DNA of 64,000 nt from Candidatus Daviesbacteria bacterium (lineage in GTDB: Bacteria > Patescibacteriota > Microgenomatia > Daviesbacterales > UBA10151): assembly GCA_016176405.1 (NCBI GenBank), contig JACOXG010000013.1, positions 398 through 64,397 of the forward strand. Direction: 5' to 3'. Made by a program: the position numbers and the translations under genes. Below are positions 10,465 to 63,348 of this stretch, piece after piece. Position 1 is the first letter of the stretch. Every line of letters starts with the position of its first letter. A model generated the notes under the pieces. It was not told the DNA's origin and did no database searches. It was given only the letters and a program-made list of their open reading frames with translations.

Positions 10465-11508
10465 ATGAGTTTTGTAATACCTGCACTGATTGCTTTTTTG
10501 GCAACTGTTTTAGCAATTTTCCCAACAATTAAAATTGCCAAAAAATTTAATTTATTAGATCATCCTCAAAAAAGACCTCACCCAGCTCATATTCAAAATA
10601 GAGTTGTTCCTAGGGCCGGTGGATTAGCTATATTTTTTGGTCTGATATCCTCTATCTTACTTTTTATCTCTCCCTCACCACCAATTATCGGGATTATTTT
10701 TGGACTATTAATTCTATTGATAGTGGGCTTACTTGATGACAGATACCCTCACCTTTCCCCATATCTAAGATTGGTCAGTCAATTTATGGCGGCCTTTTTT
10801 GTTGTTTCTCAAGGGGTAGATATAAAATTTATCACCAATCCTTTAGGTGGGATTATTAATTTTTCTCCCCTTTTTGCTTCTATCTTAGCCTTGCTTTGGA
10901 TTGTCTGGGTAATGAATATGATCAACTGGTCTAAAGGGGTTGATGGACAAATGCCAGGCATTACCACTATGGCAGCCATTATCCTAGGACTACTCTCCAT
11001 TAAACTCAACTTTTTGGGAGATCCTTCCCAAGCCGATATAGCCAAACTGTCATTTATCACCGCCGCCTCAAGCTTGGGTTTGTTAATTTTTAATTGGTAT
11101 CCTGCCAAAATTTTTCCTGGATTTTCCGGATCAACCATTTTAGGTTTTATGATTGCAGTTTTGGCCATTCTCTCCGGAGCAAAACTAGCCACAGCCGGTC
11201 TGGTCCTTTTAATTCCTGCCACAGATTTTGCTTATACCTTTTTTCGAAGAGTCTTACAAGGCAAATCTCCTGTTTGGGGAGATCAAGGACACCTCCACCA
11301 TAAACTTTTACAAATAGGTTTATCTCACTCACAAATCTCCTTGTTTTATATTTTGGGATCTGCTATCTTAGGGGCAGTTGCCCTAAGTTTAAATAGTCGA
11401 GGTAAACTATTTGCTGCTTTGCTTTTGGCAACTCTAATTTTGGGTGGGATCTTATGGTTAAACTTTTTTGGGGCCTTATCAAAGCGTCGCGCCCCAGACA
11501 GTGGATAA
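10465..11508 (+). CDS. glycosyltransferase family 4 (MraY/WecA-like polyprenyl-phosphate N-acetylhexosamine-1-phosphate transferase)
   Basis: LLDHPQKRPHPAHIQNRVVPRAGGLAIFFG and VGLLDDRYPHLSP resemble WecA/MraY motifs; NMINWSKGVDG is NxxNxxDGxDG-like; about 10 TM helices. Confidence 0.65.
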   Translation: MSFVIPALIAFLATVLAIFPTIKIAKKFNLLDHPQKRPHPAHIQNRVVPRAGGLAIFFGLISSILLFISPSPPIIGIIFGLLILLIVGLLDDRYPHLSPYLRLVSQFMAAFFVVSQGVDIKFITNPLGGIINFSPLFASILALLWIVWVMNMINWSKGVDGQMPGITTMAAIILGLLSIKLNFLGDPSQADIAKLSFITAASSLGLLIFNWYPAKIFPGFSGSTILGFMIAVLAILSGAKLATAGLVLLIPATDFAYTFFRRVLQGKSPVWGDQGHLHHKLLQIGLSHSQISLFYILGSAILGAVALSLNSRGKLFAALLLATLILGGILWLNFFGALSKRRAPDSG

Positions 11509-17211: not shown

Positions 17212-17240
17212 AATATACAAAATTTAGCACTAAATGTCAA
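17212..17240 (-). promoter_or_regulatory. sigma70-type promoter for groES-groEL (TTGACA - 17 nt - TATATT) overlapping a degenerate CIRCE-like inverted repeat
   Basis: The minus strand reads cTTGACAtttagtgctaaattttgTATATTttg. The adjacent TTAGCACT..GTGTTGCTA is a partial CIRCE match. A GC hairpin (TCCGCC..GGCGGA) lies in the 5' leader at 17175-17198. Confidence 0.5.
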
Positions 17241-18114
17241 GTGTTGCTAGTTTTTCTTTGAAAGATCTTAAAATCTTAGGCCTAATGTCATTAGGATGGA
17301 AATATAGGGCTCCTTCTTGGATCCTCTCCTGACCAATAGATTTTTGCATGATCTTTAACTGAAACCATTTAGATATAGCTTCTAAAGTATCAAAAGTAGT
17401 AGAAATATCAGAGGTATCAGAAGCTTTTGATACATTTGATACTTTTCCATCCTTTGATACCTTTTCCTGAGCTATCCAATTTGGTAAAAATTTAAATACC
17501 CATTCATTATCAGATAAATACTTAGAATAAACCCCATCTCTCTCCCAAATAACCCTCATTTGTAAAACTTCATGAGCTGTATAAAGATCTTTATTTTTTT
17601 GTTCTAAACAATCTTCTTCCAGTAAAATATTTAGACAAATTTTTCCGGCAATTTTTTGGCCAAAATCTTTTGTAGTTCTTCTTTGTCCAGTTAAAGATAA
17701 AAGTCCCAAAGCCAAAAGTCTGCTAATCCATAATCTATTTTCAGCTGTAATCACAATTAAATCTATATCATCCCCTTTTTCAGCATTTTCCATAGCCAGC
17801 CCACCAGAAATTCCCACCAACTTTATCCAGGGAATAATTTTTAGTAGCTGAGAAATAACAGTTACCTTCCTTATATATAATAGTGACTGTCTTTCTCTTC
17901 TTTTTCTTTTTACTACAATACTTTTTCTCCCTAGCAAAAAATAATAACCACTTTGCACTTGGCACTTCCCACTTTGCACTAATTTCCCCAAACTCTTCTC
18001 CACTTGCCTTAAATTAGCTTTTCTGCCAATCAGCCATTTATGAATTTCAAAAAAGTTTAACGGATAATCAAAAATATCAGCGTAAACTAAAGTTTTCAAG
18101 ATTGCTTTATTCAT
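17230..18114 (-). CDS. nucleotidyltransferase-domain protein (Pol-beta superfamily), function unknown
   Basis: GISGGLAMENAEKGDDIDLIVI matches the GS...DhD nucleotidyltransferase motif. Confidence 0.4.
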   Translation of the reverse strand: MNKAILKTLVYADIFDYPLNFFEIHKWLIGRKANLRQVEKSLGKLVQSGKCQVQSGYYFLLGRKSIVVKRKRRERQSLLYIRKVTVISQLLKIIPWIKLVGISGGLAMENAEKGDDIDLIVITAENRLWISRLLALGLLSLTGQRRTTKDFGQKIAGKICLNILLEEDCLEQKNKDLYTAHEVLQMRVIWERDGVYSKYLSDNEWVFKFLPNWIAQEKVSKDGKVSNVSKASDTSDISTTFDTLEAISKWFQLKIMQKSIGQERIQEGALYFHPNDIRPKILRSFKEKLATLDI

Positions 18115-31910: not shown

Positions 31911-32756
31911 TTATTTACTTCCCAGATAATACACATCTTTTTTGTACCTGTAGTCTGAGAATTGAAACTCACCTTTGCCATCAATTATAGCCTGATGAAG
32001 CTGGCAATCCTGACAAAGATCCTCCCCTTTAATACAAACCCAAATACCTTCTTCCAAAGCCTGTTTAAGTTGTTTGGCTTTTTCTTTTAGCCACTCCAGC
32101 TTTGGCTCCAGTGGATCTAAAACAATGGCTCTGGGACTATCATCTCTATCTAAATACCAAAATGAGGCAACAGAAACTACTTTTCCTAAATTAGCCTCTG
32201 CCAAAATAGCATAAATATAAAGCTGAATCGGGTCTTTTTCATCCGTGACACCTGTTTTAAAATCTAAAACATGCAAGGTTTGATCTTCTCTTTCCCCCAC
32301 AAAATCAAAATTACCCATTAAAATAACATCTTCAAAAAGCGGATATTTAGGAAATGAAATAGCTGGAGCCCCTTTTTCCAAAATTTTGGCATTTTGAAAA
32401 AAATTATCTATCATTTTTAAACCTCTTTTACCAAAAGTGGCCTCCTCTTCTCTGGAGCTAAAACCTCCTCTTTTGCCGGAATATTTCAGCCAAAAATTTC
32501 TAAATTTTTTAATCAGTTGATCTTGACTGACCTGTCCACCCATCTCCAAATACCATTTCACACTATCATGAACTGTGGAACCTAAAGATAGGTGAGGAGA
32601 AGCAATCTGGATTCTAAAACCAGTTTCTTTTCGTTTATAAATATTTTTCAGATAATAGCTTCTGGGACATTTTAAAAAATCAGATAAAGAAGTATAGGAA
32701 ATAAAAATGGGGTCTTTGATAAAACCAGTTTGAGGTTTAGTAATCATAATATGCAA
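31911..32756 (-). CDS. PD-(D/E)XK nuclease, RecB/Cas4-like with a four-Cys Fe-S cluster arrangement
   Basis: One N-terminal Cys (LKCPRSY) plus a C-terminal [12 protein letters not shown] cluster; D...E.K core ([11 protein letters not shown]...VLDFKTG). There is no CRISPR context. Confidence 0.5.
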
Positions 32757-32785
32757 ATTTTACTCTCAATTTTGTTAGAATACCA

Positions 32786-32923
32786 ATGATGATTGTTTTG
32801 GGCATTGAAACATCTTGTGATGAGACAGCTGCAGCTGTTTTGGAACAAAAAGGGGGACGGATACAAATATTATCCAATGTTGTGGCATCATCTGCATCCT
32901 TACAAGCTAAATATTACCCGTGA
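32786..32923 (+). pseudogene. tsaD: tsaD N-terminal segment in a different frame from the main tsaD ORF
   Basis: [24 protein letters not shown]...LQAKYYP then TGA. This is the canonical Kae1/TsaD N-terminus (GIETSCDET). The main ORF continues at 32920 in the -1 frame, and about 18 codons (the GGVVPE..R.H block) are missing relative to TsaD homologues. Confidence 0.5.
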
Positions 32924-33828
32924 TTGAGACTGCGCTGAACGGATCACGGATTACGAATCACGAATTAGATGCCATTGCTGTAACCTATGGCCCAGGCCTA
33001 ATTGGTTCACTTTTGGTGGGAGTAGAAACAGCTAAAACTTTAGCATACGTTTGGAATAAACCACTTATTCCAGTTAACCACCTCATAGGGCACTTCTATG
33101 CTAACTGGATAACCTCAGCTCACCTCCGAGGTGAAACTAAGGTGTCACCAAGATCACACCTCGGAGGTGTACCTAAGTTTCCCTGCTTGGGTCTACTGGT
33201 CTCTGGTGGCCATACAGACTTGGTACTATTTCATGATCATAGTAAATATACTTACCTTGGTGGAACTAGAGACGATGCGGCAGGAGAGTGTTTTGATAAA
33301 TGTGCCCGCCTGTTAGGTTTACCCTATCCAGGTGGACCAGCCATTTCTAAACTGGCCAAAAAGGGTGATCCTAATAAATTTAAATTACCTACCCCAATGA
33401 AAGGCATCAAAGGCTTTGATTTTTCCTATTCTGGTCTGAAAACTGCAGTAGCAAACCTTTTGCACACCTCCGAGGTGAAGGCTAGGTTACAGCAAGATCA
33501 CACCTCGGAGGTGAAACAGGATTTGGCAGCTTCAATTGAGGAAACTATAGCTAATTCTTTAATTGATAAGGTTATCTTAGCAGCAAAAAAATATAAAGTT
33601 GAACAAATTATGGTTGCAGGAGGAGTAGCTGCTAACCAGAAATTAGTGGACAGGTTACAGGATACAGTGAACAGTATGAATCCAAAGATCAGCTTACACG
33701 TACCACCTGCCCATCTTTGCACGGACAATGCTGCCATGATTGCAGCAGCCGCCTTTTTCCAAAAACCTATTAATCCGCCAGCTGGCGGACCCCTCTCTTT
33801 ACAGGCAGACCCTAATTTGACTTTATAA
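32920..33828 (+). CDS. tsaD: tRNA N6-adenosine threonylcarbamoyltransferase TsaD (Kae1/Gcp family), body of the gene
   Basis: [26 protein letters not shown] metal site, [49 protein letters not shown]. Carries two in-frame palindromic insertions. Confidence 0.8.
33121..33169 (+). repeat. 49-bp palindromic element (13-bp perfect terminal inverted repeats CACCTCCGAGGTG / CACCTCGGAGGTG) inserted in-frame in tsaD, copy 1
   Basis: Read directly. Encodes [17 protein letters not shown], an insertion relative to TsaD homologues between the HxxGH site and the LVSGGHT motif. Confidence 0.75.
33465..33513 (+). repeat. 49-bp palindromic element, copy 2, inserted in-frame in tsaD in a different reading phase
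   Basis: Same 13-bp arms; the 23-nt loop ends in the same caagatca as copy 1; encodes [18 protein letters not shown]. Confidence 0.75.
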
Positions 33829-33877
33829 ACTAGATTCAATAGAATGTGTCATCAATTACTAGCTTTAGCTTATTTTT

Positions 33878-34246
33878 ATGAAAGAGAGAATATTAGAAAA
33901 AAACCGATCAGTGCACAAGGCTCTCCAGGGAGTAACCATGGTTAATCCTAATCCTGAGAGTTATTTCCCTTATTTGGGGCCAGTGCGACTTTGGGGAGTA
34001 AGTGTAGGAGACAGTAGAAAACTTTTTCTAAAAGACCCTTCATTCCCTACACAAACCTATCACGAGGATAACATATATAGAATGTTAGGCGTTAGTATCA
34101 GACCTTTACAAGGCATACTTACGGTAAAATATCTTGACTTTGCGGAAAGAACACATACTCAAACCTTTAATCTTACTAACATCCCCTATCAATCTATGGT
34201 ACTTTTTAACAGTGTGGTGATACCTAATCGGTATCCCCAGAATTAA
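33878..34246 (+). CDS. hypothetical protein
   Basis: 122-aa ORF, no recognisable motif. Confidence 0.35.
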   Translation: MKERILEKNRSVHKALQGVTMVNPNPESYFPYLGPVRLWGVSVGDSRKLFLKDPSFPTQTYHEDNIYRMLGVSIRPLQGILTVKYLDFAERTHTQTFNLTNIPYQSMVLFNSVVIPNRYPQN

Positions 34247-46252: not shown

Positions 46253-47572
46253 ATGGATAATCAAAAACTCTGGCACAAATTTTTAGATACTATCAAACCC
46301 CAAGTTAGTTCTGCTAATTTTAAAACCTTTTTTTCCAAAACCAAAATCAACCAAGAGAATGATAAAATAATTTTATCTACCCCCTCTGCCTTCATTGAAG
46401 AAACCCTTAAAAAACGTCACCTGCCTCTCATCCAGCAAATTTTTGATGATATCTTAGGCAAAAAAGTTAAGATTGAATTTTTAATCAGCGGTGAAAACGG
46501 TCAATCAAAAAAGAAGGAGGAAGATGATTTTTTCTCTCCCATCACCATTCAATCCTCTTATTCTTTAAATCCCAAATATACCTTGGAAAATTTTGTGGTG
46601 GGGCCTTCCAATAATGTGGCATTTGCTGCAGCTCAAGCAGTAGTGCAAAATCCCGGCACTTCCTATAACCCTTTATTTGTCTATGGAGGAACAGGAGTAG
46701 GTAAGACTCATCTGATGCTTGCAATCGGAAATGCTATCTTCAAAAAAAAACCCTCGGTCAATATTATCTATTGTTCTTCGGAAAAGTTTATGAATGATTA
46801 TGTGGCAGCCATCCAAAATCACAGGATGATTGATCTAAGAAACAAATATCGCTCAGCTCAAATTCTTTTGATTGATGATGTGCAGTTTTTCTCCGGGCGC
46901 GAAGGCACTCAGGAGGAATTTTTCCATACCTTCAATGAGTTGCAATCAAAAAACTCCCAGATGATTATCACCTCAGACAGATCGCCTCATGAGATTGCCA
47001 AACTAGAGGATCGGTTGAGAAGTCGTTTTGCCGGAGGTTTAATGGTGGATATCCAACCTCCTGATTTTGATACCAGAGTGGCTATCCTTAAGGCCAAATG
47101 TACTGAGTGGGGTAGCCTACTTCCTGAGGATACCCTCAGGCTGATTGCCTCATCAACTGAATCCTCTATTAGGGAGCTGGAGGGAAGATTGATGCAAATT
47201 CTACAAATTTTAAAAGCCCAAAATTTGGAGCCTTCGTCTGAAAATATTGCCCTTTATCTTAAAGAGCCTCAAAAATCTCTTAACCTAAATCATAAACAAG
47301 TCATCTCAGCAATTTGTAGCTATTTTGATCTTTCCCTCAAAGATTTAACTGGTCCCAAAAGACAAAAAGAGTTGGTTTTACCTCGTCACATCACCATGTA
47401 TATTTTGGCTGAGGAGTTGGGGATGACTGTGGAAAAAATTGGACAACTGCTGGGTGGTAGAGACCACACCACAGTCATGCATGGTAGGGACCGGATCAAG
47501 AAACAACTTGCCAAGGATAGAGAAATTCAAAGATTATTTATGGAAATTAAAAACTATTTCCAAACTATTTAG
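46253..47572 (+). CDS. dnaA: chromosomal replication initiator DnaA
   Basis: AAA+ Walker A GGTGVGKTHL, Walker B LLIDDVQF, sensor motifs, and a C-terminal DNA-binding domain (MYILAEELGMTVEKIGQLLGGRDHTTVMH). Confidence 0.95.
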   Translation: MDNQKLWHKFLDTIKPQVSSANFKTFFSKTKINQENDKIILSTPSAFIEETLKKRHLPLIQQIFDDILGKKVKIEFLISGENGQSKKKEEDDFFSPITIQSSYSLNPKYTLENFVVGPSNNVAFAAAQAVVQNPGTSYNPLFVYGGTGVGKTHLMLAIGNAIFKKKPSVNIIYCSSEKFMNDYVAAIQNHRMIDLRNKYRSAQILLIDDVQFFSGREGTQEEFFHTFNELQSKNSQMIITSDRSPHEIAKLEDRLRSRFAGGLMVDIQPPDFDTRVAILKAKCTEWGSLLPEDTLRLIASSTESSIRELEGRLMQILQILKAQNLEPSSENIALYLKEPQKSLNLNHKQVISAICSYFDLSLKDLTGPKRQKELVLPRHITMYILAEELGMTVEKIGQLLGGRDHTTVMHGRDRIKKQLAKDREIQRLFMEIKNYFQTI

Positions 47573-47749
47573 TTTTCCACTTAAAACTTCACTTTTCCAC
47601 AATTTATCCACTAAATAACCACCATTTTTTAACACGAAATAAAAACGAAAAATGAATATAAATTTTTCATTTTTCAACATATCCACAGGACATATTAATA
47701 ACTATTACTGTTTTAAATATGTAGTATAATCTAACCTCTCTGTGGATAA
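47573..47749. promoter_or_regulatory. oriC-like region: at least 5 DnaA-box matches plus an AT-rich unwinding-element-like stretch between dnaA and dnaN
   Basis: TTTTCCACA (47593-47601), TTATCCACT (47604-47612), ATATCCACA (47669-47677), TGTGGATAA (47741-47749), and an AT-rich aaataaaaacgaaaaatgaatataaatttttcatttttcaac. Confidence 0.6.
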
Positions 47750-48197
47750 TTTAAACTTAACCCTGATTGGTATAATTTTACTTCTTTTAATTATTGCTTA
47801 TCTTTTAGGTAGACTACAAGGAAGAGGTCCGCAAGATATCCCCTCGGATCTGATTGATTTGTACCGAGGAGTACAAGAATTACCAGCCAGAATTTTACAG
47901 GTAATTCAGGGCTCAATTAATCCTCAGAAAGGTAGAATGGCAGAGCTTTTAACTTATGCTGAACTGAGATATGATTATGATCGGATTATCCCTTTAGGTT
48001 GGCCAATTGACTTTATTGGTATTAAAAATGGTGATCGGATTGACTTTATTGAAGTCAAGAGCGGACAAACTCATCTCTTGACAGATGAAGAAAAACACAT
48101 TAAAAACCTAATTGCTACGGGAAGAGTCAATTTTAGACTAATTAAGGTTTCAGAGGAAGAAATCCAAAAGTTTGTTTCTGCCCAGAAAGGGGATTAG
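47742..48197 (+). CDS. hypothetical membrane-anchored protein with a PD-(D/E)XK-like core, located between dnaA and dnaN (GTG start)
   Basis: N-terminal TM helix, then DFIGIKNGDRIDFIEVKSG, a D..(D/E)xK nuclease-like motif. Confidence 0.35.
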   Translation: MDNLNLTLIGIILLLLIIAYLLGRLQGRGPQDIPSDLIDLYRGVQELPARILQVIQGSINPQKGRMAELLTYAELRYDYDRIIPLGWPIDFIGIKNGDRIDFIEVKSGQTHLLTDEEKHIKNLIATGRVNFRLIKVSEEEIQKFVSAQKGD

Positions 48198-48198
48198 G

Positions 48199-49296
48199 GT
48201 GAAGTTTTCTTGTCTACAACAAGATCTGCTGCCTCCATTACAACAAGTCGGTCGCTCTGTTGGAGTTCATTCAGCCTTACCTGTTCTGGATAATATTTTA
48301 CTCTCTTGTGAGGGTAAAAAGTTAAGATTAGCAGCCACTAATTTGGAGGTTGGGGTAATAAAGTGGGTCCCAGTTGAGGTGGAAATAGAGGGTGAGCTAA
48401 CCATTCCTGCCAAAACCTTTATTGAGCTAATTTCCAGCTTGGGGCAAAGTAAAATCACCTTTGAGTCTGAGGGAGAAATTTTAACTGTTGAGTCTGGTAA
48501 AGCCAAGGTTACCATCAACGGTATTGCCGCCTCTGAGTTTCCTGCCATTCCGCTACCAGACGGTAAGGGCTTTTCTTTTCCCAAACATATCTTTTTAGCT
48601 TGCTCTCAGATTCTTTTTGCCACCGCAGTTGATGAAGGCAGACCACAGCTGACAGGGGTTTTAACCAAAGCAGAGGGTCAAAAATTAGAGTTTGTAGCCA
48701 CTGATGGTTTTAGATTGGCTCATCTAATAGTACCCCTTGATAAAGAGGGCGCTCCTTTTAAAAGTCTTATTCCCAAAAGAACTTTTGAGGAGATTTTAAG
48801 AATCATTGCTGAAGATAGCGAGGATCAGCTGACTATTTCACCTTCCCAAAATCAAAATCAAATTGTTTTTACTATTGGCCCAACCACTCTTTCCTCCAGA
48901 CTAATTGAGGGGGTTTTTCCTTCTTGGGAAAAAATTATCCCCCAAAAAACTAATACCAGGTTGATCTTGGAACGGGAGGAATTTTTAAAGGCCTTAAAGT
49001 TGGCTGCCATCTTTTCTGCCAGTGAAAATGTGGTTAGTTTAGAATTAGGCAAAGATAAGTTTCAGCTCAGCTCATCTGCCAAGCAGTTAGGTACTCAGGA
49101 GAATGAACTGGAGGCTCAGGTTGAAGGAGAACAGTTAAAGATTGCCTTTAATACCAAGTTTTTATTGGATGTTGTTTCAGCTGCCTCCTCAAAGCAGCTG
49201 ATGGTAGAATTTTCCGGCCCCCTGTCTCCTGCCTTGATTAAACCAGTCGGCATAGAAGGATTGGAATATATTTTAATGCCAGTCAGGTTAACCTAA
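48199..49296 (+). CDS. dnaN: DNA polymerase III beta sliding clamp
   Basis: VKFSCLQQDLLPPLQQVGRSVGVHSALPVLDNILL aligns with the DnaN N-terminus; three-domain length. The GTG at 48199 follows the upstream stop directly; the ORF-track start at 48172 overlaps the preceding gene. Confidence 0.85.
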   Translation: MKFSCLQQDLLPPLQQVGRSVGVHSALPVLDNILLSCEGKKLRLAATNLEVGVIKWVPVEVEIEGELTIPAKTFIELISSLGQSKITFESEGEILTVESGKAKVTINGIAASEFPAIPLPDGKGFSFPKHIFLACSQILFATAVDEGRPQLTGVLTKAEGQKLEFVATDGFRLAHLIVPLDKEGAPFKSLIPKRTFEEILRIIAEDSEDQLTISPSQNQNQIVFTIGPTTLSSRLIEGVFPSWEKIIPQKTNTRLILEREEFLKALKLAAIFSASENVVSLELGKDKFQLSSSAKQLGTQENELEAQVEGEQLKIAFNTKFLLDVVSAASSKQLMVEFSGPLSPALIKPVGIEGLEYILMPVRLT

Positions 49297-49748
49297 AAGC
49301 CTCTAAATTTGACTGTTTTAAAATGGTAAATTTTTTCTTCACTTAATTTGCTACCATCCTCAAATTTGGTATCACCTAAAATAATTAAGGTGTATTCATA
49401 TCCCAACTCAAAGGGTTTGTCCGGAATAATTTTAACTGTCCTTTTATCCTCTGATAACTCCAAACTATATTCAATTTCAGGTTCAAGTCTGTGCTTAAAC
49501 TCACCAGTAAACGATAAGGATTTGTTAAAGGTGATTTCTATAATCTCATCAGAGGAAATAGTGGCATTATCCAAAGGATCTGGTTTGGTAGAAATGATTT
49601 CGGCAGATTCATCTTGGTTTGACTGTGGATTTATTTGATTCTGATTGGGTACACTAGATTGTTTATTATTTTGATTAATCCACCAAAAAATACCAGCTAG
49701 GACGGCTAATCCAATTACTAAAACCACGATTTTCTTGTTTACTTGCAT
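49293..49748 (-). CDS. membrane-anchored/secreted beta-rich protein, first gene-end of the T4SS-like cluster
   Basis: N-terminal TM/signal (IVVLVIGLAVLAGIFWWI), a Gln/Asn/Ser linker, and an Ig-like beta-rich C-terminus. Confidence 0.4.
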   Translation of the reverse strand: MQVNKKIVVLVIGLAVLAGIFWWINQNNKQSSVPNQNQINPQSNQDESAEIISTKPDPLDNATISSDEIIEITFNKSLSFTGEFKHRLEPEIEYSLELSEDKRTVKIIPDKPFELGYEYTLIILGDTKFEDGSKLSEEKIYHFKTVKFRGF

Positions 49749-51577
49749 AAGTTAAAGTATAGATCAGCCGGTTTAAATACTCCATCCTCCTGGATTGTGA
49801 CATGAACATGATCTGTATCTGCTAAATATTGACCTACAGGTGTGGCCGATTGAGCCGTCTGTCCCACTCTTAGGATGGGTGTAATATGTACAAATCTAAT
49901 TGTGTAGTTTTTAGTTTTGGCAGATAGAGCAAATCCGCCACCTTCATTTGTACTTATTGGTGTGCCGGATTCAATGATAGTCCAAGTGACTTGCTCGCCA
50001 TTTAAATAAGGCAAAAATACTGTTTTGTCAGAGCTCTGTAGATCAACAGCTGTTGATCTACCTGTCACATCAGGAGATGCGCAAGGATACTTTTGTTGGT
50101 ATTCTGCACTGCAATGGCCCCCAGGAGTGTCTTTTGAGCCAAGAGTAACGATGCCTCCATTAAGAGGACAACTAACTATCCCATTTCCTCCTCCTGGATT
50201 ATAGCCACTACTGGTTACTTGACAATTTTGGTAGTCTTGCCAGACCTCATTGCAATAACTGTAGCTGCCATAGTTGCAGCTATTGTAGTAGAGTCGGATG
50301 GCTGTATTGACCTGATCTTGAGTTGGCTGTTGAGTAATTCCGTTGGCTTTTAATTTCTCTGCTGCAATTGCCAAGCTGTTGGTAATACTACAAAGGTCTC
50401 CTTTACCTTGATTGTAAATGTCCAAAAGCTGCATCAACCCAACTGCTTGGGCAGTTCTGGCTCCTCTGGCAATTTCTTCAGCAGTACACGGATCATCTTT
50501 TTCAGGATTACTATGTAAAACCTGACCATTTAGCTCACAAAAGCTTTTAGCCTTCTGGCAATACTGATTAGATTTAATAGCATCATGATTATCATCAGCA
50601 TTAGCCACAAAATTGGCACTTTCATGCATGGCAATGCTTGCCAAAACTGCTGGAGCAGCTCCTGCATTGTTACCAGCTGCCACAATCCATCCTTGTAAAG
50701 TGGTGCTTTTAATAGGTAAAGAAGTGCCAGAACGGGTGAACTTGCAATTACTAATGTTAGTGACTGGTGTCACTCCGGCTTCAGACTCTTCTGTGGAAGT
50801 TAAAGGAACAGAAAATCCTGTCAGAAACAGTAGTGCCAAAAATGCTAAAATTATCCCCCAGACTACTTTTTTTGAAGAAGTTTTGGCCCAATTTACTCCT
50901 GGTGAATTGGGAAATCTGCTTAGAACATCGCCTATCCCCCCAATGAATCTGAAACCTCCGTTACCTACCCCACCTAAAACACCACCTAACCCACCGCCCA
51001 GTCTGCTGCCAAATTTTTTTATACCAATGCCTGTGGAAGAACCTAAGTTTTTGACCACCCGCTCACCCACCGCCACCCCACTTCTGTTGGCCACAGCTAG
51101 TTTGGAAGGAGCTGTTTCCTCTGGAGGAGGTTGAGGTGCTCGGGGTACAGTATGAACTATCCTGGGTACTCCAAAAGATCCGCCAGGCATAGGAGGGATA
51201 CCTCCAGCTGCTCCAGCCGCTTCAGCTGGAGGTGATGGTGGCAGGGTTTCTGCCTGCCCAGAAGGAATACCTTCTGCTGAGGCTGTAGGCTCTTCATAAA
51301 AAATTTGTTCCTCAGGTGTTTTGGCGCCTTTATTAATTTCTGTAATTAGTTCACTATTTTTTCTATAAAGGTCTCTGGTAAAAGCCTCAGCAAAATCCTG
51401 ATTGTCCCTGTATGCTAGATTATATTTTTGAAACTGATATCTGGCAGATGGGAAAATCTCCTTTTCAAAATCATATTCATAACCTTTGTAACGGAATTTA
51501 GTTTCTGAGGAATATCTTGGATTAGCTTTGCGCTCCAGAGCCAATGCCAAAAGTTTTTTGTCAGTTATTATTGCCAT
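49739..51577 (-). CDS. bitopic cell-wall hydrolase: SLT-family lytic transglycosylase domain + C-terminal M23 peptidase domain (VirB1/PrgK/TcpG-like role)
   Basis: Cytoplasmic N-terminus, Pro/Gly-rich linker, single TM (VVWGIILAFLALLFLTGF). SLT motifs: MHESANF (catalytic ES) and AVGLMQL. C-terminal M23-like region FVHITP...TDHVHVTIQEDG. Confidence 0.6.
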   Translation of the reverse strand: MAIITDKKLLALALERKANPRYSSETKFRYKGYEYDFEKEIFPSARYQFQKYNLAYRDNQDFAEAFTRDLYRKNSELITEINKGAKTPEEQIFYEEPTASAEGIPSGQAETLPPSPPAEAAGAAGGIPPMPGGSFGVPRIVHTVPRAPQPPPEETAPSKLAVANRSGVAVGERVVKNLGSSTGIGIKKFGSRLGGGLGGVLGGVGNGGFRFIGGIGDVLSRFPNSPGVNWAKTSSKKVVWGIILAFLALLFLTGFSVPLTSTEESEAGVTPVTNISNCKFTRSGTSLPIKSTTLQGWIVAAGNNAGAAPAVLASIAMHESANFVANADDNHDAIKSNQYCQKAKSFCELNGQVLHSNPEKDDPCTAEEIARGARTAQAVGLMQLLDIYNQGKGDLCSITNSLAIAAEKLKANGITQQPTQDQVNTAIRLYYNSCNYGSYSYCNEVWQDYQNCQVTSSGYNPGGGNGIVSCPLNGGIVTLGSKDTPGGHCSAEYQQKYPCASPDVTGRSTAVDLQSSDKTVFLPYLNGEQVTWTIIESGTPISTNEGGGFALSAKTKNYTIRFVHITPILRVGQTAQSATPVGQYLADTDHVHVTIQEDGVFKPADLYFNLCK

Positions 51578-51596: not shown

Positions 51597-53393
51597 TTAT
51601 GCATTTTGTCTTGCCAAAATTTCCTGTGGGCTGGATGTAATCAGCTCATGTTCTTTAGGGGAAGCCACTACGCTCATGGCTACATGGGTTGATCCGGCAA
51701 AAAATAGGCCTTGGCCTACCCCGGCTGATAATAGCAGTCTCTCCTCTCCTTCCGACAGATAAAAAACCTTAGATAACAGATCAATTGAGGCCGGAGCTTG
51801 TTTAAGTAGGACCTGGATAGATGAGTTGGAAATAATTTCTTTACCCCTCTCAGTTGCCAAAAAATCCTCCACATCTTGGGTTATGGTGGTTAGTCCCAGA
51901 TAGTATTTTCTGGCTCTTTTGGCCATATCCACCAAAAAGTTGGCTGAATCTTCATTTCTCATCAAATACCAGGCCTCATCCACAATTAAAATTCTTTTTT
52001 TGAGCTTAGTTCTGATTTTAGTCCAGACATAATCCAAAATCATATGGATGGCCAAAGGTCGGAGTTGATCAGCCAAATCCCGTACCGAAAAAACTGTGAA
52101 GGAGTTGGTTAAATTGATGTTGGATTGGGAAGAAAAAATGCCCATCAGGGAACCCCTGATAAATCTTTCCAATCTGGCAGCCAGCTCTATGGCTGGTCCC
52201 TCCTCCATGCCCACTAAAATTTTATAAAGATCCTCCATCAAAGGAGGCTGTCTATTTTGAGTTTTTGGATCATCGGTGATACCTTTAAGCTGATAAGTTT
52301 GCTTTAGGGCTCGATCCAAAATGGCACCTTCTGTGGCAGTTAGTTGTCCCAAGACCAATTTTAGAAAAGTAGTTAAAGACAAAATTTTTCGTCCCAGCTC
52401 ATTTTCTCCACTTATTTCTGCTGACATATCAAAGGGATTGATCTTAACCGGCGAAGATGAGGAAAAATTAATAAATTCTCCTCCCACTGCCTGAGCTAAA
52501 GGTAGATACTCTTGCTCAGGATCAATCACGATAATTTCTGTCCCAAACATCAAAGAACGTAGCGCTTCCAGCTTGACAAAGTAACTTTTCCCAGCACCGG
52601 ATTTAGCAAAAACCACCGAGTTGGCATTTTCCAAAGTAAACCTGTCAAATAAAATCAAAGAATCATTGTGAGCATTGATACCATACATAATGCCTTCATT
52701 AGCTGTGAGCTCCGATGAGGCAAAAGGAAAAGTGGTAGCCAAAGAGGTAGTATCCATGTTATGAGCCAGGTTAAGATAATCAACGCCGATGGGAATAGTT
52801 GATCTAAAACCATCTTCCATCTGTAAAGTGGTGGGTCGGGCAGTCATCGACAGGGAGGCAAAGGTTGATTCCACCAGTTTGGAGGTGTTATGGAGTTCTT
52901 CTTTAGATAAAGCAGGTACTGTGATGTATAAGGCAAACTGAAAAAATCTCTCCGCTCCTCTGACCAGTTGATCTTGTAAGGCCCTGGCATCTTCCAAAGC
53001 CACCTCAACTGCTGGATCAACAGCTCTGCCTCTTTCCAGATCTGTTTGGAGCGTTGCCTCCATCTCAGCAATCTTTCTTTTTAATTCATCCAAAACCCCA
53101 GCTGATTCTGAAGGATAAATGAACATGGAGATAAATAGGGAATGATCAAAGGAGATTAATGGTTCTAGCCAGTTTGGTTCCACAAATCTGGGGTAGTTTG
53201 ATACAAAGTAGCTTCTAAAGAAACGATCATTGATGTTGAGCTCATTAAAGTCCACCTCAATCTCTGCCGGGGCAATCACATCAGAGATGGTCAGTTGATC
53301 TTCCCTAGCCACTTCTTCTGGCTTGGTCTTTTTGAATAAACTCGATAATTTCACGTTTTTTGAATCCTTATCCCTCCAACTCCTCCACCACAA
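51597..53393 (-). CDS. VirB4/TraC/CagE-family type IV secretion ATPase
   Basis: Walker A FAKSGAGKSYFV, Walker B RILIVDEAWYLM, and the conserved VirB4 C-terminal region (GLTTITQDVEDF). Confidence 0.8.
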   Translation of the reverse strand: MWWRSWRDKDSKNVKLSSLFKKTKPEEVAREDQLTISDVIAPAEIEVDFNELNINDRFFRSYFVSNYPRFVEPNWLEPLISFDHSLFISMFIYPSESAGVLDELKRKIAEMEATLQTDLERGRAVDPAVEVALEDARALQDQLVRGAERFFQFALYITVPALSKEELHNTSKLVESTFASLSMTARPTTLQMEDGFRSTIPIGVDYLNLAHNMDTTSLATTFPFASSELTANEGIMYGINAHNDSLILFDRFTLENANSVVFAKSGAGKSYFVKLEALRSLMFGTEIIVIDPEQEYLPLAQAVGGEFINFSSSSPVKINPFDMSAEISGENELGRKILSLTTFLKLVLGQLTATEGAILDRALKQTYQLKGITDDPKTQNRQPPLMEDLYKILVGMEEGPAIELAARLERFIRGSLMGIFSSQSNINLTNSFTVFSVRDLADQLRPLAIHMILDYVWTKIRTKLKKRILIVDEAWYLMRNEDSANFLVDMAKRARKYYLGLTTITQDVEDFLATERGKEIISNSSIQVLLKQAPASIDLLSKVFYLSEGEERLLLSAGVGQGLFFAGSTHVAMSVVASPKEHELITSSPQEILARQNA

Positions 53394-54126
53394 ATGGGTG
53401 AGCTCTCGATGATTGGCTTCTAATTGGAGCTTGGTCTAATTTTGTTTCAGCTGCTATTTGAGAAACCTGGGCTGGTGTGACAGTTTCTAAAGGTTTGGGA
53501 GTACTCTTAGGCTCCTTTAAATTAACAGGCATGGTGGGTAAAGCTGGACTGGGTTTGGTACTGTAGTTGTAGATATTAAAAAAAACTTGTAAAAGTTTTT
53601 GGTTATCAAGCTGGGTGGCTTTCAAGCCGATTCTAGACAGCTGTCTCAAAATTTGATCTCGCCTGGGTAGTAGGACAGTTTTTATTTTTTGCTCCAGAGC
53701 TTGTTTTGAGGCAATCAGCCCCAGTTCCAATTTAAAAAGGGGCACCACTATATAAAATTTTTTATCTAAAACTTCATTTTCTTTGATGGTGGATTGGATA
53801 AATTGCCGGTAATGACTCATCATCTGAGATAACAGTTGGTTAGTTTGACTCTTTTGCGCCTTATTCAACAGCTCAAGATAGGATGAGATGTCCAATCTTT
53901 CTGAATCGATGACAATTTGGATACTAAAGGATAGGGAATTTAGCATTTGGGCAAAAGCATCAATGATGGCCATTTGCTCCCGGCCAGAAAGCAAACCAAA
54001 ATTAACAGCCGAAACTTGCAAAATTAAGGCTCCGCCACCACCTTTTAAAATGACGATTCCTTCCTGAATATCAGCTATGGGCAGATGATTTTGGGTGGTA
54101 TTCATGTTAGCTTTTAGCCACCACAT
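53368..54126 (-). CDS. hypothetical T4SS-associated protein (26-nt overlap with the VirB4 gene; possibly a detached VirB4 N-terminal module)
   Basis: 252 aa, no TM; coupled to the downstream ATPase gene by overlap. Confidence 0.35.
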   Translation of the reverse strand: MWWLKANMNTTQNHLPIADIQEGIVILKGGGGALILQVSAVNFGLLSGREQMAIIDAFAQMLNSLSFSIQIVIDSERLDISSYLELLNKAQKSQTNQLLSQMMSHYRQFIQSTIKENEVLDKKFYIVVPLFKLELGLIASKQALEQKIKTVLLPRRDQILRQLSRIGLKATQLDNQKLLQVFFNIYNYSTKPSPALPTMPVNLKEPKSTPKPLETVTPAQVSQIAAETKLDQAPIRSQSSRAHPFVVEELEG

Positions 54127-55183
54127 TAATGGGTGGTAAAACAGAACCTGTCAGTTCAATCTGTAATACATCAAAGGCAAAATTTTCCTTCTCCAGCTCC
54201 AGAGTGTAGATGCCATTAGGCAAAGGAGTAGAGCCACTAAATTGACCTAATTTGTTAGTTTTTAAGGCTCTGACTGGTAGACCCTCTTTGTCATAGATGA
54301 CTGCCACCACTCCTTCTAAATAATTGCCCACTGTATCTTTGACCACCCCATTAATCACATTAGGAAAAGTAGTCAGGGCCACCTGAGCAATCTTTGGTCT
54401 AATTGGGATGACTACCTTAACTTTTTCCTTAGGTGGCTCTTTTTCCGAAGGTTCCGGAGGCCCGGAAACATTTTCCAGTTTTTCCTTGACCGCCGATGCT
54501 TGAGTGATCATGTTTTTTAAATCAGCCAGGATCTTATTGACTTGCTGGCTGTAATCAACTGGTATGGGAGTAGGTTTGGTAGCTTCAGCCCTAATTTGTC
54601 CTAAAGTTCTTTCTGTCTGAATAATTTTTAGCTGTAAATCTTGAGCCTGTTTGGCCAAGTCAACTGTTTTTTGCAACTCTTCGCCGGTGGGCAGTTGGGA
54701 GACAGGTTTAGAGAGCTGAGGAGTTGGTGGAGTAGGTTCTTCGGGCACCTTTTTCATCTGAGGACCGGAAGTAAAAACTAACAATCGGCTGCCAAAAAGA
54801 GGATCTTCAAAATAGCTTTTACCTGCTCTTATCCAAGATCTTTTGGTGGGAGAATAGATGGCTTTAATGAAGGCTGCAAACCAGTGATCAAGGGGTCTAG
54901 ATCCTATTGGTAAAAAAGCAAAAGCTACTCCTGAAAGGGCCGATAAAACAATCAAAGGCCAAGCCAGATAAGGGTAAGGAGCGGCTAAAAAGACAAACAT
55001 TAAATAGGCCAAACCAACACCGGTTGCCAGGTAAAGAAACTGTTTTAAAGTCATATCCCCAATCAGCCTAAACTGAAATGAGGTGACATTTTGTGGAATA
55101 GGATGTGGTTCCATGACTATAAGGTATGCTACAGCGTGAAAAATTACAGGTAAAGAGGTACAAAGTAGGTCATTTAAGGGCAA
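54107..55183 (-). CDS. T4SS-associated membrane protein: VirB3-like two-TM N-terminus + C-terminal carboxypeptidase-regulatory-like beta-sandwich domain
   Basis: TM pair (FLYLATGVGLAYLMFVFLAAP / LIVLSALSGVAFAFLPI), a Pro/Glu/Lys linker, and a C-terminal GVVKDTVGNYLEGVVAVIYDKEG..NGIYTLEL CarbopepD_reg-like region. Confidence 0.4.
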   Translation of the reverse strand: MPLNDLLCTSLPVIFHAVAYLIVMEPHPIPQNVTSFQFRLIGDMTLKQFLYLATGVGLAYLMFVFLAAPYPYLAWPLIVLSALSGVAFAFLPIGSRPLDHWFAAFIKAIYSPTKRSWIRAGKSYFEDPLFGSRLLVFTSGPQMKKVPEEPTPPTPQLSKPVSQLPTGEELQKTVDLAKQAQDLQLKIIQTERTLGQIRAEATKPTPIPVDYSQQVNKILADLKNMITQASAVKEKLENVSGPPEPSEKEPPKEKVKVVIPIRPKIAQVALTTFPNVINGVVKDTVGNYLEGVVAVIYDKEGLPVRALKTNKLGQFSGSTPLPNGIYTLELEKENFAFDVLQIELTGSVLPPINVVAKS

Positions 55184-56782: not shown

Positions 56783-56863
56783 ATTGTAAATAAACTTTAG
56801 TTAAATTCATCCCAATACCGTCAGGATTATATCAGGATTTAATCAAGCACTTAATTCCGATTT

Positions 56864-56930
56864 ATTGTTAAATTGCTTCATTGTTATATTGTCTTAAAAA
56901 ACAATTTAACAGTTTAACAATATAACAATT
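56864..56930. promoter_or_regulatory. nested inverted repeats (TTGTTAAATTG / TTGTTATATTG ... CAATTTAACA / CAATATAACAA) upstream of a TTGACA-N18-TACACT promoter and GGAAAGG RBS for the giant gene
   Basis: Palindromes read directly from the sequence; a -35-like TTGACA at 56943-56948. Confidence 0.5.
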
Positions 56931-57003: not shown

Positions 57004-60000
57004 ATGTCTAATGCTGAAAGATTAAATATGGCAGATGCTATTGCAACAGAAACAGCTGAGCCAAAAGTAGTGGTTACTTCTGAGAAAGACAGCTACCAAA
57101 AAGGCGGCATAATGAGGTGGCTTAAAAGAGGTTCAAAGGCTCAAGTTTTGATGAAACCAGGTGAATTTGAACCTCCCACAGCAACTCAAGATTCTCAAAT
57201 TGAGAATGTGCATGCTCGGAATCAACAAGCAGCTGAGACATCTTCCAAGAGAGAACATATCCTAAAATTACCTGGTTATGATCCAAATAAAGAATATGAG
57301 ATTAGAGAATTGGGGAATGCTGTAATTATTGTTGATCCAGTAACAGGGAAAGAGATAGGTATATTACCAAGAATTGCTGGAGGTAGCCCGGATATACCAG
57401 ATTGGATTACTGAAGCAGCCAAGAGTAAGCCTTTGAGGTTACAGGAAGCTCAAGAGCTTGATCAAATTTATTCAAGGGTTGATCGTTCTAGACTTCCTGG
57501 GCATCAGGTTGGTGAATTAGACCGCATGATTCAGGCAAATCAGAATGAACTCAATACCCTTCAGAGAGAGGTAGAGCAACTGTTTGAAGAAGCAAGCAAT
57601 GACAATATCTTGAATTTTGTCATAAATGATGTAAGAGCTGCTTACATTAAAGCCATTCAACCACCGCCAGCTTCCATTTGGGAAGCGCAACCTCCAACAG
57701 GCCGAGAAATTGATTTGAAAAATTATCAGGAAACATTTTGGGATTTAGGATACGATGTTTTGCGCGATTTATTTTTAAGGGGGGCGGTCGGACCTATTGA
57801 CATAAGAGCGTTACGAGCAAAGTATGAAGGTTTGGGCAGTTATATAGCCTCAAGAGCGGCTGTAGCTATTGATAAGGATTTAAAAGGATTACCATTATCA
57901 CCATCGACTGAGTTAGGAGATCGTATTCTTGAGGGTGTCAAAAGGGAACATGAATATGCAGAAAGCAGAAGAAGAGCAAGAGCCAGTGCTGATGAGATGC
58001 TTAGATATAGTGACTGGAGAGAACGCTTTGATTTTGACTGGGCTCAAAATAGGCCGGAGTTGAGAGCCTCAGTTTTTGCCTGGCTGGAGAAATTTGTTGC
58101 CCATTTACCAGAAGCAACAATAGATGAACTTAACAATGAATCACTGACTTGGAAGCGTAATGCTATCAGTGCTCTGGAAAAAGCTGCCAATAGGCTACGA
58201 ATTTCAGAAAAAGAACCTTTTTACAAAGAACTTAAAAGTACTATTGAAGCATATGTTGAAGTATATCGAGGAGCAAAGTTTTTGGAAACTGATGGTGGGC
58301 TTGAGGCGGCTACAATTGCCTTGGAAGAATTTGCCCATAATTTTAATCCTAAACATGATGCAATATATTTAGGTAATGCTAAATCTGCCATTATTCAAGC
58401 CTTTATGGCTAGAAATCATGGGGCCATATCCGCTAGCACCGTACCCATCACAAGAGATACCGCTCCTACGGGCGCAGCCATTGAAACTATTGAGAAACCT
58501 CAGGCAGGAGACTTGGAAGAGTTTAGAGGTAATATAGAAGAGCAAGCAAAACAATATGCAGCCACTCACCAGTTATATATCAGGGAAGCTGATTTTGAAA
58601 CAAGAATTAGACAAAGTAACGGGGGTTATAGTTGGGATGATGTTATCGAAGACTTATTACTCGAAGATAGAAGGGGTATGAATGCCGCTAATGCTTTAAC
58701 AGACCCGATTGCTCAAGCTGAAGCTATAGCCAGAGTAGTAACCAGAACAGGTGTTTTCCAAAGAATTAAAGAAAGGTTGGATAGAGAAGATGAAGCGAGA
58801 GATGGAAGAAGCTTTGCCGAACTCACAGATGATGAAAGAAGAGAAGAGATTAGGTTTAGGATCAGAACAAAGATGTTTCTGACAGGATATAGAAATCTGG
58901 TAGACGACATTGATCTTACCACAGATCCGGTAGACAAAGACAGGAAATTATGGAATTGGCTAAAAGGATACAACCTAAGAAGAGAAATCCAGGGTCATAC
59001 GTTGTTTTTCCCCAGCTACTGGGATGAAGTCAGATTAAGCATAAATAGACCAACCAAATTAGTAGATAGGGCTCTCCAAGAAATCAATAAAGCTGAACAA
59101 ATGAGGAGATTGAATCCCATTCAAGCAGAAGCCATCCGAAACAGTATCAAAAACGAAATGAGAGCTAGAGGGGCGGATAAAGAAGTTGACAGAATTGAAT
59201 CCTTAATAAGTCCGCTTAATAGAGACAAGGCTTTATGGAGATGGGTTGATAAGTATAATGCAGCCAGAAAAGACCGTGGGGAGGAACCTTGGTATGCCGG
59301 TGATTGGGATAGAGCTCTACCTGAAGACGAGCTTGAGGCCATGATTGAGGAAGTAGATCCTTTTAGAGGGGTATTACGCATTGATGGCTTAACAGATCAA
59401 GAGATTAATACAGCCATAGAAAATCTTAATTGGACAGATCCCGCACAACCCAATTTTATTGGAAGTGGATTAACTGCTGAACAAATTGAAACAGCCAAGA
59501 GAGAAATGTTGGAAGATGCTTTATTTGATAAACAACAACGAGAAACTGAGGCTGAACGAGCTTACAATATTAACAGAGCTTACCAGAAATTCTTAGGAAT
59601 TGATGCCAGATGGGGTGGTATGTCTATAAGGGAGATTAATGATGAGGGAGAGATGTTCCTGAAAAATGTCTGGGAGAAAGCTGAAGAAATATTGAAGGAG
59701 AAGATTGATAATGAGGAAGAAGAAACAGAAGAAAAAGTAGCTGCCCTTGAAGCAGCTTTAAGAGCCAGAGGGGGTTTAACAGATGCTGAGATAGAGACAA
59801 CTCTCATTGAAAGAAGAAGGTTATTAAGAAGGGATTCCACATTCGGAGCCACCTTGGCGCTTAGGGAAATAGGCATTGCTAATGATTTACCCATTTGGAA
59901 TTACTATTACTATAACGACCCTCAACGTATTCAAACTTTTGCTCCCTTGGTGGGATATACACATAATGATAAACCACAAATAATCGATCTTTTGGACAGA

Positions 60001-63212: not shown

Positions 63213-63233
63213 CCTGAGCGCAGCGAAGGATCT
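63208..63233 (+). repeat. copy of the dispersed repeat overlapping the start codon of the VirB6-like gene
   Basis: gtcatcctgagcgcagcgaaggatct. Confidence 0.55.
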
Positions 63234-63348
63234 CAATATTAATCTAGAGATTCTTCGGCCTTTGGCCTCAGAATGACACTTTATGTCAGTTTTGAGTTTG
63301 GACAACATACTTTAAGAGTAAACTAAATAAGCTGTAAATGTCAAAGAT

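Follow-up and report, generated by a model that had tools for sequence, protein, structure and literature searches.

Small palindromic elements within the tsaD reading frame of a Daviesbacteria genome belong to a dispersed and apparently undescribed family of Microgenomates-type bacteria

The stretch of DNA analyzed here (the window) comprises 64,000 nucleotides of a Candidatus Daviesbacteria metagenome-assembled genome (MAG; GenBank assembly GCA_016176405.1, contig JACOXG010000013.1, positions 398 to 64,397). On its forward strand, an open reading frame (ORF) at 32920-33828 encodes the tRNA-modification protein TsaD and contains two 49-bp palindromic elements in frame, copy 1 at 33121-33169 and copy 2 at 33465-33513. 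The ORF (302 residues from a GTG, without the N-terminal 61 residues; NCBI MBI2020420.1) was identified as TsaD by a match to Pfam family PF00814 above threshold (E = 4.5e-75), by the HxxxH and SGGHT motifs, and by synteny. The gene order, PD-(D/E)XK nuclease, TsaD, a small ORF and valyl-tRNA synthetase (ValRS), is kept with the orthologues from Patescibacteria MAGs. Copy 1 lies after the HxxxH metal motif and before LVSGGHT, at a position that we refer to as site B, and copy 2 lies after GLKT, at site C. The initial annotation, made from the sequence alone, had described two elements with perfect 13-bp arms, 23-nt loops and a common loop end inside TsaD. It proved correct to the base, and the peptides, the two reading phases and the positions relative to H..GH, LVSGGHT and GLKT were as it described them.

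In both copies, the left arm is CACCTCCGAGGTG (33121-33133 and 33465-33477) and the right arm is its reverse complement, CACCTCGGAGGTG (33157-33169 and 33501-33513). The 13-bp arms are 100% complementary and stand 23 nt apart, enclosing the loop AAACTAAGGTGTCACCAAGATCA in copy 1 and AAGGCTAGGTTACAGCAAGATCA in copy 2, both of which close with caagatca. Each arm is itself a palindrome (CACCTC-S-GAGGTG, with C or G at the centre). Thus, the arms repeat each other in direct as well as in inverted orientation. An arm search of the window allowing up to two mismatches found no matches besides the two copies. These account for 8 strand-matches against 0.32 expected, a number reached in 0 of 100 shuffles. 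The two copies are also the sole perfect G+C-rich hairpins among the window's 25 longest short-range inverted repeats listed. Folded as RNA, 55-nt segments containing the 13-bp stem gave -27.3 kcal/mol for copy 1 (z = -5.35) and -27.6 kcal/mol for copy 2 (z = -6.16). The copy 1 loop agrees at 19 of 23 positions with AAGCTAAGGTGACACCTGGATCA, a working consensus picked by eye for the subfamily with 23-nt loops. A comparison of flanks revealed GCT on the left and TA(C) on the right of the best-conserved family members, and the full unit of copy 1 is therefore probably 54 nt long (33118-33171; GCT, the 49 nt and TA, making 18 codons). This boundary is read from the flanks, which have diverged between empty and filled orthologues to the point that the exact ends of insertion cannot be fixed. 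The two copies are read in different phases, since the arm begins at codon position 1 in copy 1 and at codon position 3, one phase later, in copy 2. They have 21 identical bases in common (CAAGATCACACCTCGGAGGTG) that are absent from the orthologous copies, which hints at conversion between them. In the L116 orthologue of copy 2, the arms are identical and the loop differs at three positions. Both window copies look old and vertically inherited, and not like recent insertions.

The tsaD gene of the window is broken upstream of the elements. The frame from the true start, an ATG at 32786, ends at a TGA at 32921-32923 because 49 nt are missing after position 32914, leaving an orphaned 5' part of the gene at 32786-32923 (forward strand, ending ...LQAKY). 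Over 11.6 kb, a sister assembly (L124, GCA_016198315.1) differs from the window solely by 49 extra bases, GGTGGTATTATTCCGGAACAGGCTGCTCGCGAACAGATCAAATCCATCA, at window position 32914/32915, being otherwise 100.000% identical. The same bases are present in the otherwise 100%-identical L125, and an intact TsaD ORF of 363 residues with both elements is found in L124 (NCBI) as well as in L125 (Logan). This indicates that the elements are compatible with an intact gene. The loss shifts the frame and takes out the conserved segment GGIIPEQAAREQIKSI, most of whose columns, in the orthologue alignments, show no variation or reach at least 90% conservation. We treat the deletion as a matter separate from the elements. 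The missing 49 nt equal an element in length from arm to arm, and their right flank, TACC, is the same as that of copy 1; the match may be coincidence, a real variant or an assembly error. A footprint of slippage or excision was considered and rejected, as the junction has neither microhomology nor palindromic ends. The record being a MAG, and this unexplained deletion lying in the same gene, are the points in favor of the elements themselves being an artefact of assembly or sequencing, such as a chimeric fold-back. However, the elements are identical in three independent assemblies (the window, L124 and L125), and related copies occur in frame in MAGs of many projects and assemblers, with loop differences that track phylogeny. 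We give an artefact almost no credence.

We then compared 120 TsaD orthologues with 57-71% identity by BLASTP. Of these, 29 were aligned, and their identity to the window protein in the alignment is 67-78%. Length variation is focused on three places, namely after IPVIEEAL, after HFYANWI (site B) and after GLKTAVAN (site C). Site B could be parsed in 117 orthologues and site C in 97. With up to eight residues counted as empty, site B is taken as empty in 42/117, while 8 orthologues have the canonical pair HLRG...HLGG, 12 have variant-arm pairs (such as HLPG...HLEG), 4 have a solo or degenerate arm, and 51 have other inserts that do not belong to the family. At site C, TSEV...TSEV-type pairs were found in 27/97 orthologues. 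At the DNA level, site B holds a 23-nt loop in the window, L117, L119 and L120, a 14-nt loop in L123, a 17-nt loop with variant arms in L122, and a solo arm in L116. It is empty in L118 and in L121, the latter being empty at site C as well. Solved TsaD structures (8IEY, 3ZET, 4YDU and 6N9A) show a gap of 16 residues opposite site B and of 8-9 residues opposite site C. In an AlphaFold2 model of the intact protein (mean predicted local distance difference test score, pLDDT, of 82), the inserts are placed between secondary-structure elements. The site-B insert is modelled as coil (pLDDT of approximately 58) between a helix and the strand leading to SGGHT, and the site-C insert as a short helix-turn between two helices. 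The elements are inserts in TsaD and not native sequence. That the segments are lineage-specific, as the initial annotation had proposed, is borne out by the orthologues with a short site B and by the gaps in the solved structures, and the model agrees with its suggestion of tolerated loop positions.

The two TsaD loops, and the third place after IPVIEEAL, carry several unrelated inserts in other species (orthologues P0002-P0120; L117, L119, L120 and L123 at site C). The insert peptides include ...IASSPSAPRNDNF, DYSLPSS..GSRKSE, KYHVSSI..KIHNTKYIIQ, SEQFTVNS/SEQVTVDS and VIPSE(A)RNL...DPSL(I/V)VQDD. By their peptides they look palindrome-derived, palindromy having been read in the DNA for the L120 site-C insert only. 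It seems that these genomes generally carry palindromic inserts in frame.

To place the elements in a broader setting, one genome per species was scanned with the pattern CACCTCSGAGGTG-N(8-38)-CACCTCSGAGGTG. The arm-loop-arm pattern was found in at least 115 stretches, nearly all of them Microgenomates-type MAGs from many projects. Among the matches listed, to which the counts in this and the next paragraph refer, the main taxa are Daviesbacteria, Curtissbacteria, Beckwithbacteria, Roizmanbacteria, Woesebacteria, Levybacteria, Gottesmanbacteria, Shapirobacteria and WWE3, and several MAGs have 4-7 element-bearing stretches per genome. A few matches come from high-GC genomes (Streptomyces, Kofleriaceae and others) and resemble chance matches or peptide repeats. 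ORFs of at least 150 residues contain 89 of the 108 low-GC copies (82%). The host ORFs (n = 83) match 139 Pfam families, mostly housekeeping, including UvrD, PurL, DinB, the CCA-adding enzyme, GatA, topoisomerase I, ATP synthase gamma, DNA ligase and RF-1. Copying has brought the units into a wide range of unrelated housekeeping genes, and it is from this distribution of copies that we infer mobility. They measure 37-55 bp and code for 12-18 residues, with loop lengths grouped at 11, 14, 17, 23 and 26 nt. Thus, arm plus loop is a multiple of three. The loops fall into subfamilies, one of them AAGCTAAGGTGACACCTGGATCA-like with both window copies as members, others being AAAAAATGCGATTA, GTGTTGCGCCTGCGGCA and several 11-mers. 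Six copies that differ in their flanks have exactly the loop GTGTTGCGCCTGCGGCA; five of them agree in their arms as well, and in the sixth the arm centres are swapped. On a single Curtissbacteria contig, a 37-nt unit is found unchanged in two different genes and in two phases (L113, L001). Many element-bearing contigs (L009-L011, L015, L020, L024, L027, L045 and others) are labelled as uncultured Gammaproteobacteria or Pseudomonadales (binchicken MAGs) and yet are low in GC; these labels are probably wrong. Few copies are clearly intergenic, among them one with a 25-nt loop at 5477-5527 of L055, in the short dnaA-dnaN spacer of a Patescibacteria MAG.

Dispersal bears directly on whether the window simply contains a native TsaD loop that happens to be palindromic, or palindromes that arose on the spot through template switching, without any copying from locus to locus. 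In keeping with this explanation, the loops at sites B and C are variable in every TsaD protein and, depending on the orthologue, contain one or another of several unrelated palindromes. It is contradicted by identical arms and loop subfamilies in unrelated genes and genomes, by the same DNA in two phases within one gene, and by the excess of arm matches in the window over chance expectation. The initial annotation had allowed that the segments would be native if the arms occurred nowhere else in the genome and orthologous proteins carried the same peptides without palindromic DNA. Instead, the arms are present in many other genes and genomes, and many TsaD orthologues have apparently empty sites. 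We regard native origin as scarcely tenable.

The ORF-borne copies are all free of stop codons. By phase, 50 are read as HLRG, 37 as TSEV and 2 as PRR. None of the six frames of the arm contains a stop codon, whilst the 23-nt consensus, as we read the sequence, is closed in all phases but the forward HLRGE phase and one reverse phase. This accounts for the bias in phase. ATP synthase gamma provides a second clean example of an insert, with 15 residues that face a gap in the solved structures.

We next asked what is conserved, using nine aligned tsaD genes with 66-73% DNA identity. Where residues are identical, the codon is shared in 49-51% of cases outside the elements, against 72/76 in the site-B arms and 19/19 in the site-C arms. 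The arm codons are rare ones in these genes (CTC 4%, CGA 5%, TCG 5%), and the loops have diverged across the same interval in which the arms stayed constant. The conserved unit is the DNA and not the peptide, because the same DNA is read in different phases at sites B and C. Arms that depart from the canonical sequence keep their pairing. The site-B arms of L122, CACCTTCCAGGTG and CACCTGGAAGGTG, are variant and perfectly complementary, whilst at its site C (CACCTTCGAGGTG and CACCTCGAAGGTG) the self-symmetry of each arm is lost and the pairing between arms is kept. Six arm types were found in TsaD and other genes, each perfectly complementary. A metagenome scan that prescribed the left arm alone (as the C6T variant), and was thus unbiased as to the right arm, found the latter compensated 51 times and canonical 9 times; by our reading of the table, these stand for about ten compensated and eight uncompensated distinct elements. 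T:G mismatches occur 4 times in the sense and 6 times in the antisense orientation, a small sample without sense-strand bias, and selection at the RNA level is therefore unsupported.

A function in RNA would mean that the tsaD mRNA hairpin regulates translation or stability, or that it is removed or bypassed and the peptide is never made. A stable 13-bp stem (-27 to -30 kcal/mol, z of approximately -5 to -6) and compensatory changes that preserve it are what such a function would lead one to expect. Against this, dozens of unrelated genes contain copies, which run in either direction relative to the gene and are read mainly in two phases, and the uncompensated T:G positions are distributed over both strands as described above. 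A scan of 32700-33900 with Rfam gave chance-level matches only, far below gathering scores. Removal of the 49-nt hairpin would also break the frame, whereas reading through it keeps the conserved downstream frame of TsaD, and the absence of stop codons from every ORF-borne copy is as translation would predict. An RNA-level explanation is thus very improbable in our estimation.

The hairpin also occurs inside a larger repeat. This MITE-like repeat (MITE, miniature inverted-repeat transposable element) is approximately 137 bp long, has TATATAGC... ends, and carries at its centre the compensated-arm hairpin CACCTTCGAGGTG - 18 nt - CACCTCGAAGGTG. In groundwater metagenome contigs, it has 11 or more different flanks, and it often stands at the end of a contig, which would fit assemblies breaking at these repeats. 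Copies lie at L131 1-127 and 11183-11309, with others in L128, L130, L135, L143, L153, L158, L172, L175, L196, L200, L209, L221 and L225. The pairs of hairpins at contig ends, approximately 11.2 kb apart, were considered as replicon termini. This was rejected, since the interval is ordinary chromosome (UvrA, UvrC and a solute-binding protein).

Between identical flanks, the loop of the MITE-like repeat occurs in flip or flop orientation, as in the two copies on L131 (42-85 compared with 11225-11268). Similarly, the 17-nt loop is present in both orientations among TsaD site-B orthologues (VPQAQH versus GVAPAA). The loop inversions, together with the solo arms, indicate that the arms behave as substrates for inversion and deletion. 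A bolder proposal is that the arms are recombination sites of a dedicated system and the loops exchangeable, invertible cassettes, or that the elements have been domesticated for a function at the DNA level. It is suggested by the TsaD site, which holds 14-, 17- or 23-nt loops, one and the same loop in either orientation, or a solo arm, while the arms are constant. We consider this a long shot. If true, bacteria of the candidate phyla radiation (CPR) would own a mechanism that rewrites surface loops of conserved proteins, or domesticated elements, which goes beyond tolerating junk DNA.

The main rival holds that the elements are DNA sites selected by the host, where the arm binds a dimeric host protein (compare parS, matS and Noc sites) or the pair forms a functional cruciform, so that the elements were domesticated or were never selfish. 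The arm is a 13-bp dyad with 6-bp half-sites, and its sequence itself, beyond complementarity, is conserved across species and genes in which synonymous sites are saturated. Copy number per genome is modest, tsaD lies approximately 13 kb from dnaA in the window, and the L055 copy stands between dnaA and dnaN. However, binding sites normally arise by point mutation and not by import of 37-55-nt units with conserved loop subfamilies. The sites are wholly absent from many orthologues and genomes, variant arm sequences persist, and the same hairpin forms the core of the MITE-like repeat at its various loci. There is no clustering at the origin either, with dnaA on 1 of approximately 110 element-bearing stretches. 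Host selection of the sites therefore seems unlikely to us as their origin.

Taken together, the reading of the initial annotation holds, and we consider it likely that the elements are a dispersed, copy-and-paste palindromic family, translated as loop inserts. The unit consists of two 13-bp palindromes, CACCTC-S-GAGGTG, placed inverted around a subfamily loop, and has been copied between loci. Copies would survive where they landed in a permissive surface loop, in a stop-free phase and with a frame-keeping length. Those in tsaD would be transcribed and translated through, as inserts of approximately 16-18 residues at two loops. The arms of old copies would stay perfect through active upkeep of both sequence and complementarity, probably by hairpin-templated correction, by gene conversion between copies, or through recognition by a putative protein that moves or recombines them. 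The same arms would permit inversion of the loop and collapse to a solo arm.

Several observations weigh against this explanation. In GatA (L051 1086-2486), the element AHLRGESKVTPGSHLGGV aligns to a native segment of solved structures without net change in length, which implies that not every copy is a simple insertion; from the alignment, this element may either have replaced resident sequence or have filled an earlier deletion. Old, orthologous copies are numerous (TsaD, PurL and the IINHLRGEKMRLHLGGVAVL gene), no recent insertion polymorphism was demonstrated between near-identical genomes, and the window has just two copies in 64 kb, both in tsaD. We saw no duplication of the target site in 28 copies with 23-nt loops or in the classes with loops of 11, 14 and 17 nt, and no consistent target motif in four loop classes beyond the weak GCT/TA(C) flanks of one. 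A search for transposases in the window found none in the best 25 of 78 Pfam families or in ten individually scanned ORFs. Neither a REP-associated tyrosine transposase (RAYT; REP, repetitive extragenic palindrome) nor an autonomous parent was seen in the window or in the loci examined; approximately 1.65 Mb of DNA contained no long element with the arms or the MITE-like ends as its boundaries. Viral contigs scanned with the arm-loop-arm pattern gave no match. Finally, perfect arms in copies common to species with saturated synonymous sites are unlike decaying selfish DNA, and we infer that an extra maintenance process is needed for them. Hairpin-templated correction of quasi-palindromes is known from Escherichia coli and could keep the arms complementary. 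Conservation of the arm sequence itself may reflect gene conversion among copies or a sequence-specific protein.

Elsewhere in the window lie the origin genes dnaA (46253-47572) and dnaN (48172-49296), with the cumulative GC skew minimum nearby. Between them, a 151-residue ORF at 47742-48197 (PF10107) is related to archaeal Holliday-junction resolvase-type endonucleases; speculatively, it could act on palindromes as a nuclease that cuts junctions or cruciforms. A type IV secretion-like cluster occupies 51597-55183 on the minus strand and includes a VirB4/TraG P-loop ATPase (51597-53393) and a PrgI-family protein (54107-55183). The large ORFs on either side of it (49739-51577, 57004-61419 and 61434-63308) have no Pfam matches. 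Two A+T-rich imperfect hairpins have no relation to the family, one at 17381-17445 inside an ORF on the minus strand (17230-18114) and the other, a composite inverted repeat, at 56863-56929, just upstream of the 1471-residue ORF at 57004.

The initial annotation had likened the elements to Rickettsia palindromic elements (RPEs). RPEs (Ogata et al. 2000, Science 290:347) are palindromic and approximately 150 bp long, and numerous Rickettsia genes carry them in frame, as summarized in PMC10969869. The likeness is one of repeated palindromic DNA in frame in unrelated housekeeping ORFs of a small-genome, host-dependent bacterium, with an extra peptide translated at fold-compatible positions and no obvious transposase. 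In-frame palindromic insertion tolerated in the protein was likewise observed here, in the 89 of 108 listed copies within long ORFs and in the gaps opposite the TsaD and ATP synthase gamma inserts. However, RPEs measure approximately 95-150 bp, code for approximately 30-50 residues, are restricted to Rickettsia and have consensus sequences of their own, whereas the present units of 37-55 bp and 12-18 residues belong to Patescibacteria. The latter are two to four times shorter and have perfect, self-palindromic 13-bp arms with modular loops. The comparison thus upholds a likeness of behavior and not of descent; homology is not expected, given how far the two differ in length and host.

REPs are 20-40 nt long and are mobilized by RAYT transposases (PMC3733652, PMC3116915). 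The present family shares with REPs and with REP doublets forming hairpins (REPINs) a similar size range, G+C-rich hairpins and families within a genome, and a REPIN, with two inverted REPs around a short spacer, is formally like arm-loop-arm. REPs, however, are extragenic, carry a GTAG or CGTC head and have a RAYT gene flanked by REPs, whereas 82% of the present copies among the matches listed are inside ORFs of at least 150 residues and no RAYT was seen in the DNA examined. The GTAG/CGTC end tetranucleotide is absent, and flanks are variable, at most GCT|arm ... arm|TA(C) in the best-conserved subfamily. Bacterial MITEs such as Correia repeat enclosed elements (Correia/CREE), enterobacterial repetitive intergenic consensus sequences (ERIC) and Nezha are reviewed in PMC10969869. 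Like MITEs, the elements have terminal inverted repeats (here perfect, 13 bp), and are non-autonomous and dispersed; MITEs, too, occasionally lie in frame in genes, and one hairpin subfamily centres the MITE-like repeat. MITEs are usually 100-400 bp long with target-site duplications and an identifiable parent insertion sequence; the mini-elements are far shorter, and neither feature was found in the copies and the DNA examined. By the features that define those groups, the family is probably neither an RPE homologue nor a REP or a classical MITE.

Two further systems resemble the family in scale. The G+C-rich palindromic clusters and "byp" elements of yeast mitochondria are very short, have spread in an A+T-rich genome and can sit in coding genes, but they belong to organelle genomes and the ribosome skips byps, whereas the elements described here preserve the frame, and reading through them is the simplest interpretation. 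The very small dispersed repeats that Elhai and colleagues described in cyanobacteria in 2008 are reportedly palindromic, mobile in appearance, a few tens of bases long and nested inside other repeats; in contrast to the present family, most of them lie between genes, and they are not known to form protein inserts in frame. Literature searches directed at palindromic, MITE or in-frame insertions in CPR/Patescibacteria gave no description of such elements. The family appears to be undescribed, as the initial annotation had supposed, and specific to Microgenomates-type CPR/Patescibacteria.

In-frame selfish palindromes had hitherto been held to be peculiar to Rickettsia, and an unrelated, much smaller family is now seen across a large CPR clade. 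This indicates a general route of protein-loop evolution in reduced genomes, and the family would help to explain the many lineage-specific inserts in CPR proteins. Such repeats inflate apparent protein divergence and seed spurious similarity between unrelated proteins through motifs such as HLRGE..HLGG and TSEVK..TSEVK. The strict upkeep of arms in ancient copies, the flipping of loops and the solo arms are not explained by simple decay, and the question of mechanism becomes which protein recognizes CACCTCSGAGGTG.

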